Source: Candidatus Babeliales bacterium
Lineage (GTDB): Bacteria; Babelota; Babeliae; Babelales; JBFXEV01
Length of the DNA stretch: 64,000 nucleotides
Direction: 5' to 3'
Assembly (NCBI GenBank): GCA_050179755.1
Contig: JBFXEV010000001.1
Span: 1,321,994 to 1,385,993 of the forward strand
Part shown: piece after piece, positions 38,026-48,043 of the stretch
How positions within the stretch are numbered: position 1 is the stretch's first letter
How the letters are laid out: every line of letters begins with the position of its first letter
Position numbers and translations under genes: made by a program
Notes under the pieces: model-generated
Told to the model about the DNA's origin: nothing
What the model saw: the letters and a program-made list of their open reading frames with translations, nothing else
Databases searched by the model: none

Positions 38026-38310
38026 GTTCTATCCCTAACTCACTTACTATTAACCCCGAGTGAATCGCGTAGCGATTAATATCGAGGGGCTCATTATTCA
38101 TATTTTATAATAGCAAATTATTAATTTATTGCCAAAAGTGCATATATAAAGGCTCCATTTTCTTATTGCAACAAATAAAAAATTTACCTATACTAGATAT
38201 GTCTCGTTAAGCCTTGGGTTCATTCTTCATACGATTCGCAACAAAACAAGGCTTTCGAGCATTCCTATCATCTCTGAATGATTTCAATTCCCTACCATTA
38301 TTAAGCTTAT

Positions 38311-38745
38311 GTAGAAGTGCCACTGACTTTCTGCCTTCATTATCCCTGGTGCCACTGCGCGTGGCGGCGCATGCCTTTTTCATGCGAAAAAGGACGCAAA
38401 AAGCACCAACGTGCCGCTGGACCATTCCGCTCGATCGCTGAGCGCTATACTTCACGTCGTTTCACGACGAAGTATGCACGCAGCGCGTAGGAACCATTCA
38501 TAATTTTGTTGTGAGCCAGTTGATATCCATCCACCCACACAACAATACACATAGAAGAATAACAATATGCGACGGCTAGAATTAACCCTGTGGATATTAT
38601 AAGCTGGATGATAAGGTATGGGGATCATTAAGGGATAGCATGCCCTTAATTGGTTTTTGCACCCTTTTTGCCACCAAAAAGGCGTGCGCCGCCACGCGGA
38701 GTGGCACCAGTGGTGAAGCATGTAAATTTTCTGTGGAACTTCTAC
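38311..38745. mobile_element. Structured non-coding element, copy 2, with two inverted arms
   Basis: GTAGAAGTGCCACTGA...TCTGTGGAACTTCTAC; right arm 38655-38745 is an inverted copy of the first ~95 nt. Confidence 0.75.
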
Positions 38746-45076: not shown

Positions 45077-46009
45077 ATGGCAAAAATACATAAGCTACTT
45101 ATTATTGGCTCCGGCCCTGCTGGCCTTACTGCAGGCATATATTCTTCACGCGCTAATTTAGAACCAACCATTATTGAAGGCACGAAGCCCGGTGGTCAAC
45201 TTATGGGAACTACCAAAGTAGAAAACTGGCCCGGTGAAACTTCAATTCTTGGACCACAATTAATGCAAAATATGCGAGAACACGCAAAAAAAGCAGGCTG
45301 CACGTTCCAAACAGGTGATATTGCGTCAGTCGATTTTTCTCAGAAACCTTTTACACTCACCACCAATAAAAATGAACAACTCCAAGCCCATGCCGTAATT
45401 ATTGCAACAGGCGCTACGCCTAAGCGGCTTGGCGTGCCCGGCGAAGATCAGTATTGGGGCAAAGGAGTGACCACGTGCACGGTATGCGACGGTGCATTTT
45501 TTCAAAATCAACCAGTGGTGATTGTGGGTGGTGGCGATTCTGCAATGGAGGGAGCTTCTTTTATGCTCAACTTCACCAAACAAATTACCATCATTCAAAT
45601 TCATGATAAACTCAGTGCTTCTGTTGCCATGCAAGAACGTGTGATCAATAACCCTAACATTAAGATTATCTATCAAAGTTCTGTCACCGAAATTAAAGGT
45701 GACGCTCAGAAACCCACGCACGTTGTGGTGAAAAACAATAAAACTGGTGATACACAAGAACTGCGCACCGATGCCGTGTTCGTCTCTATTGGCTTAACGC
45801 CAAACACTCAAGCCTTTAAAGATCATATTGAACTTCTTAAATCTGGCCACATTAAACTGTTTGGCAAAACTAAAACATCCGTTGAAGGCGTGTTCGCTGC
45901 AGGCGACGTGGCAGATTATACGTACCGCCAAGCAATAACAAGCGCTGGTGATGGCTGCATGGCGGCACTTGATGCCGAGCGTTATCTTAAGTCGATTGGT
46001 ATTGAATAA
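45077..46009 (+). CDS. trxB: Thioredoxin reductase
   Basis: IIGSGPAGLTA, GGQL..T..VENWPG, CTVCDG, GGGDSA, FAAGDV..YRQAITSAG. Confidence 0.97.
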   Translation: MAKIHKLLIIGSGPAGLTAGIYSSRANLEPTIIEGTKPGGQLMGTTKVENWPGETSILGPQLMQNMREHAKKAGCTFQTGDIASVDFSQKPFTLTTNKNEQLQAHAVIIATGATPKRLGVPGEDQYWGKGVTTCTVCDGAFFQNQPVVIVGGGDSAMEGASFMLNFTKQITIIQIHDKLSASVAMQERVINNPNIKIIYQSSVTEIKGDAQKPTHVVVKNNKTGDTQELRTDAVFVSIGLTPNTQAFKDHIELLKSGHIKLFGKTKTSVEGVFAAGDVADYTYRQAITSAGDGCMAALDAERYLKSIGIE

Positions 46010-46371
46010 TTGACTTTGACTGACTTCATACCATAGCTTAAGCTGGAACGAGCCTAAAGTTATATGTATCATCAATATAAAGCCTTATTATTTTTGGTTT
46101 ATTGAGAATTATTAATTTCCATTGCCGGATTAAATCAAGGAATTTATCAAATGGTGGTAGCGCAGGTCGCAGCCTGCTTCCTTTATTGTATTTGTTAAGT
46201 TATAGACTAATATTCTCTCTTCGATAACTTCTAATGGATATTCTTCATCATAGTACTCATAAGGTGCAATTTTTTAAAATTGCTAACAAACTTGATAAAC
46301 GCGGTACCCCCATTTGTATATATCAGATTTATATTGTTCATTGTATATTGTCAAATCTCTTTTTTACCCGA

Positions 46372-46653
46372 TTAACTTGTTATAATATTATATACTTGAG
46401 GGAAAGAATTGCCTGAGCGATGAAATTTTCTCAAATAATATAAGACGTGAAAATATTCTCTATGTTTTTTCAAATAATAAGGATCCGTATTATTTTCATC
46501 ATAGATTAATGTTTCAGTTTCTTTATCAAAAATACCTATTGCTTTGACAAATATATGATTAATGGACTTGGATGATTCATCTAATATTTCTGTTTCTAGT
46601 AAGTAGGTAACAGTCGTATCATTCTCTGAAAGTTTATTAAATTTTATATACAT
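46372..46653 (-). CDS. Putative immunity protein
   Basis: 93 aa, starts 1 nt after the toxin-like gene stop, very AT-rich. Confidence 0.6.
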   Translation of the reverse strand: MYIKFNKLSENDTTVTYLLETEILDESSKSINHIFVKAIGIFDKETETLIYDENNTDPYYLKKHREYFHVLYYLRKFHRSGNSFPQVYNIITS

Positions 46654-46654
46654 T

Positions 46655-47638
46655 TTATTCTTTAAAGTTAGGATTATACCAGTACCACGTCTTATTAATT
46701 ATATCATGAGCTCTTTGATAATCGATTTTAAATTTTTTTTCAAAAAGAGCTTCTGCAAGTTCATGACGTAATAATTTTATATCATTTTTTATATAATCAC
46801 CCTTGAATAATCGATCCCACGCAGCAGCTATTTCTTCATCGGGTGCAAACCGATCGACTACATTGTCTGGTAAAATATGTTCATTTATAAATAAATGTTC
46901 TTTTATTAGTTTAATCTTTCTTAATGGCCAGCCAGTGTTTTTTGCAATGACATCAATATCATTAGTGCAGGATCTTATTTTATCATATTCCTCGAGTGTC
47001 CAATCGACCGCTTTATAGTCACATCTCGGTCTTACTATTCTGCATTGTTCTCTGGTATCAACAACGGTTTTATAAATATCTTTTGGTTCAGGTTTAAATT
47101 GGGCAAGAAATTCTAATTCTTCAGCTGTAAATTGCGTCGAAGATAATTCTGGCTCATTAGATATTCCTTTTTTTGCTATCTCTGAACCTTCTCCTTGCAT
47201 TACTAATTTGATGCATTCTTGCTTGGCAATTTGACCACGTTCTTTAGTCAAATTAATATTTTCATCGCTTATAAATTGCAACTTCTTCTTAGCCTCTGCA
47301 ACTTTATTTGAAGCTGAATCTTTAGTTCTACCTATTAGTGATTGTTGGTGTTCGCCACTTTTAGTTGGCTTGGTAGGAATGGTATTTGCAGATCCACTAA
47401 AATTCTCATGAGGCAATATAACTTCAATTACTTCCCCAGTATCTGTAGCAACTTGGACTGTTTCTCTTGGTCTTGCAAGTTGCGGGGCATGATCATGCGC
47501 TAATGAAGAAGCTTCTTCATGACTAAACTGACCGTAATAGTTATGGGCAAAATGTGTAGTATTAAAAAGCATAACTAATAAAAAGAAACTGAGATGAGAA
47601 AAAGATACTGTTTGATTGCCAGCTCGGATGAATGCCAT
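46655..47638 (-). CDS. Secreted protein with C-terminal polymorphic-toxin-type zincin-like domain
   Basis: AGGAG RBS, signal-like N-terminus; YDKIR..DI..IAKNTGW..IKEHLF..RF.PD..IA.AW.RL..DIKLLRHELAE..Y..AH. Confidence 0.7.
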   Translation of the reverse strand: MAFIRAGNQTVSFSHLSFFLLVMLFNTTHFAHNYYGQFSHEEASSLAHDHAPQLARPRETVQVATDTGEVIEVILPHENFSGSANTIPTKPTKSGEHQQSLIGRTKDSASNKVAEAKKKLQFISDENINLTKERGQIAKQECIKLVMQGEGSEIAKKGISNEPELSSTQFTAEELEFLAQFKPEPKDIYKTVVDTREQCRIVRPRCDYKAVDWTLEEYDKIRSCTNDIDVIAKNTGWPLRKIKLIKEHLFINEHILPDNVVDRFAPDEEIAAAWDRLFKGDYIKNDIKLLRHELAEALFEKKFKIDYQRAHDIINKTWYWYNPNFKE

Positions 47639-48043
47639 GATGTACTCCTTGTATGCAATAAAAAGTCTGTATAGTTATACTACAAACTCTCGCTGTTTGC
47701 AATTAACTGTTTTTCCCCTAACTCCCTACAGCGTTTTATTATGACTGATCTCGCCTGGCAGCTTATTTTTACCTAAATAAATCATGTTAAAGCAAATAAT
47801 AATTTCCTATAATTTGCAAAGTAAAAACTTCCGGTTCTAGGGTATGCTGATTATAAAAACAAAAACAAACTCCTAACAATAACAAGCGCTGGCGATGGCT
47901 GCATGGCGGCGCTTGATGCCGAGCGTTATCTTAAGTCGATTGGTATAGACTAAAGCTTTATTATCAGACTCAAATTGACAAATAGCTCAATTTGGCTACT
48001 ATTTAAATCTGATATTATTATTATTTCTATTTATTGGGATTTC

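Follow-up and report, generated by a model that had tools for sequence, protein, structure and literature searches.

In this Candidatus Babeliales genome, the last 77 nt of trxB, the gene for thioredoxin-disulfide reductase, are duplicated, and a predicted antibacterial toxin gene and a predicted immunity gene lie between the two copies. This islet is probably, if only just, the scar of a one-sided recombination with the DNA of a close relative, anchored by homology in trxB and closed at its far end by an illegitimate join inside the same gene. Coordinates refer to the window, that is, the whole 64,000-nt stretch that was analysed, except where a genome or locus is named.

The trxB locus and its islet

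The trxB gene (45077..46009, + strand) is intact and encodes 310 aa (TIGR01292, 371.5 bits against a cut-off of 343.45). The duplication of its 3′ end, described in the first-pass annotation, was recovered by blastn (E = 1.5e-29) and by alignment. The two near-identical 77-nt copies, at 45933..46009 and 47877..47953 (both + strand), are spaced by 1,867 nt. They differ at 45949 (T/C), 45967 (A/G), 46003 (T/A) and 46006 (A/C). Each of these sites is the third base of its codon, so that three of the changes are silent and the fourth is E/D. The same TAA stop closes both tails, resulting in ..YLKSIGIE* upstream and ..YLKSIGID* downstream. Blastn found no third copy in the 1.525-Mb genome. The interval between the tails has 32.1% GC compared with 39.1% for the genome, and about 1% of 3,047 windows of the same size were equally low. 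The AT-rich insert of about 1.87 kb with two genes was thus found as first described, with two intact ORFs, except that a third, frameshifted gene remnant had been missed.

Short-read unitigs reproduced the islet without mismatch over 45973-47941 in all three matching runs, which come from a single study, are possibly the source of the assembly, and are the only runs that contain this DNA. The depth of the islet unitig was 0.86-0.97 times that of the next unitig downstream, with no excess over the flanks in the three runs. The unitigs stop at a 35-nt core that is identical in the two tails (45968-46002). Read support for the junctions was therefore partial: the islet with parts of both tails was exact in every run, the trxB-islet join was not bridged, and the integrated order depends on the single-contig assembly. 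A mis-assembly that fused two strains is highly improbable. The absence of a trxB-islet bridge among the short-read contigs listed, and the possible identity of the runs with the source of the assembly, would allow it. Against it, the islet unitig carries the allele-specific bases of both tails in three runs at near-flank depth, while the unitig of a 183-nt repeat at alr (described below) had about twice the flank depth in the same number of runs.

In a genome of the same genus (G001), the trxB locus is empty: small secreted-type genes come directly next, with no toxin and no repeat. A 13-nt flank containing TTGACA stands directly behind trxB there. In the window it is found at 47974..47986 (+ strand, with a promoter-like match at 47975), behind the downstream tail and not behind the upstream one, which is followed by islet DNA. 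Because of this flank, the downstream orphan copy is likely the displaced original. We infer that the upstream working tail is the incoming allele. These observations bear out the earlier proposal of a replacement 3′ end with a displaced original tail. Both tails encode a C-terminal SIGI extension that is absent from G001 trxB, so both derive from close kin. Neither a donor nor a conspecific empty allele was present among the genomes compared, and neither recombination step was seen in them; the closest trxB in the genome collection was at 81%, and no relative in the metagenomes was above 71%. Comparison across relatives, suggested in the first-pass annotation, thus gave the empty site in G001 and no trxB orthologue with other cargo behind a stranded tail.

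The larger islet gene (46655..47638, − strand) encodes a predicted secreted polymorphic toxin of 327 aa. It consists of a hydrophobic N-terminal stretch (hydrophobic window at residues 11-28), a unique middle and a C-terminal toxin-like domain (46658-47122). A predicted immunity protein of 93 aa (46372..46653, − strand) begins 1 nt past the toxin stop. It had no family match in Pfam or NCBIfam. It has three paralogues in this genome (32-40% identity), two of which stand behind a paralogous toxin gene of 600 aa. The alr islet of this genome has a predicted immunity gene of 266 aa, and the frameshifted remnant (46050..46264, − strand) belongs to its family (tblastn E = 3e-15 at 43-57% identity, split over two frames; also tblastx). 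The predicted cargo thus comprises a polymorphic toxin gene, its immunity partner and the broken remains of an immunity gene.

The toxin-like domain, the last 155 residues of the protein, is widespread, with 1,384 relatives at E ≤ 0.001 and occurrence in 25 of the 261 genomes of the phylum, yet it has no Pfam family or solved fold. There was no match in NCBIfam, PHROG or PDB either, and a single-protein query did not find it in viral contigs. Nearly all of the best 150 of the 1,384 relatives, which measure 121-5,865 aa, had it as their C-terminal part. LXG, PT-TG, RHS, MuF/minor-capsid or LysM domains were present on 11 of 42 scanned carriers, and an ORF of about 95-130 aa followed the domain in 17 of the 20 ORFs listed. 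Thus one C-terminal domain is borne on different delivery N-termini, with a tightly linked small gene downstream and with orphan modules, as in polymorphic toxins. The predicted model of the domain had a pLDDT of 87. In fold searches its best VIA Z score was 3.4 (rmsd 4.0, 70 aligned residues), and Foldseek gave no match at E ≤ 0.001. Conserved H, E and D residues, among them H120, E121, E124 and H139 of the domain, which are invariant, suggest a metal-binding enzyme.

An extended -10-like 11-mer in the toxin leader (47674..47684, − strand) occurs four times in the genome. Two of the copies are ahead of this toxin gene and the 600-aa paralogue, and we take the motif to be a putative promoter. 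A 27-nt match was found upstream of a toxin-like gene in G001. Promoter and terminator counts were at chance level, including a terminator-like hairpin with a T run in the trxB direction (46162..46177, + strand; one found against 1.1 expected in shuffles).

The 600-aa toxin-like paralogue (L032:11074-13898, genome ~1.496-1.499 Mb) has 56% identity over the domain. Behind it are three immunity-like genes, including the cognate small gene, and a toxin fragment. Other small genes occupy the orthologous position in G001.

Duplicated gene ends in this genome and its relatives

Self-comparison of the genome revealed four gene-tail duplications: trxB (77 nt), alr (192 nt), msrAB (163 nt) and an S1-domain gene (234 nt). 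In three of the four, toxin-immunity-like pairs lie between the copies. The alr tails are 98% identical, with one change in the first 180 nt, and enclose a 5.5-kb islet (L072, genome 1074145-1080071) with three genes, of 1,307, 266 and 106 aa, the second of them AT-rich. The msrAB tails are 86.5% identical, with a central identical patch between divergent sides, and enclose a 2.8-kb islet (L073, genome 1028750-1031895) with a PT-HINT protein gene and two AT-rich small genes. This three-gene unit forms a tandem array at a different location in G001. Each of these two islets holds large-plus-small gene pairs. G001 is empty at both sites, and the ancestral neighbour adjoins the orphan copy; the G001 alleles did not settle the polarity of the msrAB copies. 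The fourth repeat belongs to a stand-alone gene with two S1 domains. Its tails are 96% identical and enclose a 4.5-kb islet (L074, genome 338900-343902) with a glycosyltransferase and a methyltransferase gene. The S1 orphan is fused with a patch of 21 nt taken from farther upstream in the S1 gene and has its own hairpin behind the stop. Here the G001-like flank is behind the upstream copy and not behind the orphan. Differences in the alr and S1 repeats are mostly non-synonymous. A strict 40-nt tail scan covering 986 of 1,282 ORFs detected only trxB and the S1 gene, missing alr and msrAB, and gave zero mid-gene and zero upstream cases.

Dispersed intergenic repeats of about 200-230 nt with 80-92% identity are also present in the genome (for example, at genome 700165-700361 and 740942-741152, and in the window at ~38300-38500).

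Among relatives, tail duplications were found 6 times in 20 toxin-centred 20-kb loci and never in 18 control loci of the same genomes (one-sided Fisher p = 0.014; p = 0.027 when an ftsW event shared by two genomes was counted once; kin are not independent). The control loci were unmatched for variability, and the enrichment of toxin loci may reflect variable regions in general. The six affected genes were ftsK, ftsW (twice), tyrS, orn and a gene of 121 aa. The toxin lay between the copies in just three of them (ftsK and ftsW twice), two of which are one event. This ftsW duplication is common to G258 and G259 (L100 and L101), with the same orphan junction and with two extra cargo genes in G259. 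At one site, the orphan in each of these genomes matches the working copy of its own genome, which hints weakly at gene conversion. The tyrS repeat is 100% identical.

Gene starts were duplicated as well. Around toxin and immunity-like arrays, the upstream region and first codons of glyA and of a DUF4143 gene were repeated (L082:5524-12617 and L094:7805-11795), the mirror image of a tail duplication. Across all cases the repeats measured 27-545 nt. One end coincided, exactly or nearly, with a gene boundary, and the position of the other within the gene varied from case to case. The 31 metagenome loci contained one upstream-orphan case, of 29 nt. The polarity of the orphans was dropped as evidence, since geometry alone produces it.

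The first-pass annotation had regarded trxB as an attB-like site or a recombination hotspot. In the data at hand, none of them conspecific, trxB does not look like a hotspot. A trxB motif scan of the phylum gave matches in 171 of 261 genomes (33 match rows were unlisted), 12 of which had two matches, and no stranded tail of a trxB orthologue was found beyond the one in this genome. The second matches in G042-G045, G051, G200 and G206, judged from the listing, were distant paralogue-type motifs. Those in G210, G228 and G180 were full-length tandem trxB paralogues (sequences inspected for G210 and G228), that in G187 was again a full-length copy, and a 55-nt trxB repeat in G192 was a scaffold gap of Ns. 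The tandem full-length paralogues of G228 and G210 are at L120 and L121, respectively. The 54 trxB-family 3′ ends (28 from genomes, 26 from metagenomes), 35 of which had at least 3 kb downstream, many contigs being short, yielded only chance-level matches of 18-24 nt. A phage or integrase element with an orphan trxB tail did not appear in viral contigs: a 44-nt pattern had no match, and a 31-nt pattern matched seven contigs, all with a full-length trxB. A related case was seen in G039, where a trxB-family paralogue, a TrxB-thioredoxin-like fusion gene, has its 545-nt tail duplicated at 91% identity (L034:1310-6631), with an ankyrin gene and part of an adjacent gene between the copies. A literature search, with most subscription journals outside it, returned no paper on integration at trxB or on polymorphic toxins of Dependentiae.

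Origin of the islet

If one-sided recombination formed the islet, a donor strain would have carried the cassette directly behind the trxB stop codon. A linear fragment of its DNA would have entered the recipient, likely by transformation, and paired with the recipient trxB. The non-homologous far end would have joined the recipient strand within trxB, 77 nt ahead of the stop, with nothing deleted. The donor tail would then complete trxB and the recipient tail would be stranded downstream. A need for immunity could select against loss of the islet through recombination between the repeats, and trxB would be one of many possible anchors.

The repeats fit one-sided recombination with an illegitimate far join because they have a fixed end at the gene boundary and a variable inner end and occur at unrelated targets. 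They fit it also because no integrase was recognised among the islet ORFs, no dif-like site stood above background at the four junctions of this genome and no extra recombinase was shared. The islet pairs a homologous anchor with a non-homologous join at its opposite end, as in homology-facilitated illegitimate recombination (HFIR); this pairing is equally expected under Campbell integration. Capture by homology, which had been offered as an alternative, was the best fit. This genome has comEC, dprA and a T2SSE-family ATPase gene, and the dprA reported in the window was confirmed (TIGR00732, above cut-off). The comEC gene was present in 10 of 14 control genomes, and its presence is no proof of competence. 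Against one-sided recombination, the flank polarity at S1 is reversed, the alr and S1 differences are mostly non-synonymous, and only three of the six tail duplications at toxin loci have the toxin between the copies. HFIR in the laboratory usually yields insertion-deletions, not duplications.

The same anatomy would result if a circle of trxB tail and cassette, closed through Ku/LigD end-joining or looped out between repeats already in place, had integrated through one RecA crossover inside that tail. We consider such a Campbell-type insertion-duplication unlikely. This genome has Ku, the LigD phosphoesterase and an ATP-dependent ligase, a circle is compatible with the unitig graph, and the central identical patch of the msrAB repeat also agrees with it. 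Yet two genomes with tail duplications, G258 and G208 (95% and 97% complete), gave no Ku match, the islet depth does not exceed that of the flanks, and some repeats are just 27-36 nt, a length at which repeats are poor RecA substrates. The end-joining set itself is split over three places, with the LigD phosphoesterase, Ku and the ATP-dependent ligase at window 55413-56012, genome 1019481 and L033:10482-11477, respectively.

Integrative elements that target gene ends classically carry a replacement 3′ end with synonymous changes, which is the anatomy seen at trxB. The first-pass annotation had considered a satellite or remnant of such an element, and its report that the islet lacks an integrase was correct, as there are just two ORFs and the remnant. 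It is quite unlikely that the islet is a satellite or the remains of a site-specific element at the trxB 3′ end, with attL and attR at its borders and an integrase that has been lost or works in trans. Direct repeats on both sides do restore trxB, and the islet encodes no integrase; none was recognised among the ORFs of the islets inspected (trxB, other gene tails and relatives). The same layout at many unrelated genes, with repeats of variable length, speaks against descent from one integrase system, whether as satellite or as remnant. The genome encodes three tyrosine recombinases, one of them not XerC/D-like, which might have served in trans. This third recombinase (L075:15710-16645) is 88% identical in G001, but it has no orthologue in four other genomes with tail duplications (G188, G258, G208 and G045). 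No serine resolvase family match was obtained. Dif-like scores at the four junctions of this genome were 9-11 of 15, within background (scored against a consensus dif). The lack of an orphan trxB tail in viral contigs and of a second case at a trxB orthologue also counts against such an element.

A break near the trxB end might also have been repaired with a long target-site duplication, so that the copies were identical at first and diverged later. This is improbable, although the fully identical tyrS repeat, the single change in the first 180 nt of the alr repeat and the illegitimate join of the S1 orphan to its 21-nt patch agree with it. Differences pooled over the repeats fell at third codon positions in 27 of 49 cases (p = 0.0014 against one third), which favours one-sided recombination and rejects a purely neutral copy. 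With orphan decay from identical copies, the third-position bias did not reject such a duplication (p = 0.15), and the deficit at second positions gave p = 0.012, or 0.23 without msrAB, all with rough weights. The four third-position differences out of four at trxB had p ~0.05 under this model. Also against it, repeats stop at stop codons and not at random places, and the hairpin after the stop of the S1 orphan is expected of a former gene end.

If the one-sided recombination reading is right, a lineage with a small genome and a likely host-dependent life gains toxin-immunity pairs without integrases and without loss of flanking DNA, and the duplicated tail is a countable scar of rare one-sided recombination in nature. 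It would also warn that a replacement gene tail alone is no evidence of an att site. A broader proposal, which we regard as rather improbable, is that the Babeliota (Dependentiae) have a dedicated, sequence-independent route, with no integrase, by which toxin-immunity cassettes are lodged behind essential gene ends. At every insertion a kin allele would repair the gene, and the tail left behind could act as a reusable recombination handle. Such a general gene-end capture pathway would provide a toxin domain that is not yet described and with which intracellular bacteria compete.

Comparison with known systems

Integrative elements such as e14 in icd and SCCmec in rlmH enter the end of a protein-coding gene and rebuild it. 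The islet is like these elements in its intact target with a replacement tail, its displaced original tail and its foreign AT-rich cargo. It is unlike them in that no integrase was recognised, neither target nor junction is fixed, and the repeats range over 27-545 nt. After Campbell integration of circular DNA, the homologous segment flanks the insert as a direct repeat. A direct repeat of this kind is present here, whereas there was no sign of a circle, replicon or vector, and the shortest repeats are very short indeed. A study of small variable segments reports that 10-18% of the segments have flanking direct repeats, mostly shorter than 30 bp (PMC2884548).

As described (PMC3482391), polymorphic toxin systems resemble the islet cargo in a variable N-terminus, a C-terminal domain shared by LXG, RHS and MuF carriers, a small gene behind the toxin gene, and orphan immunity genes or fragments. 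The cargo differs from them in that its domain matches nothing in Pfam, NCBIfam, PHROG or PDB, its toxicity is a prediction, and its N-terminus resembles a signal peptide and has no known delivery domain.

An HFIR-like mechanism has been proposed for the T6SS effector-immunity arrays of Vibrio cholerae (PMC5361080). These arrays share with the islet a conserved upstream anchor, a non-homologous toxin-immunity module behind it, an old 3′ end shifted downstream and the lack of an integrase. In contrast, the anchor there is the toxin locus and the effector is displaced, whereas here the anchors are unrelated housekeeping genes that stay intact with a duplicated tail.
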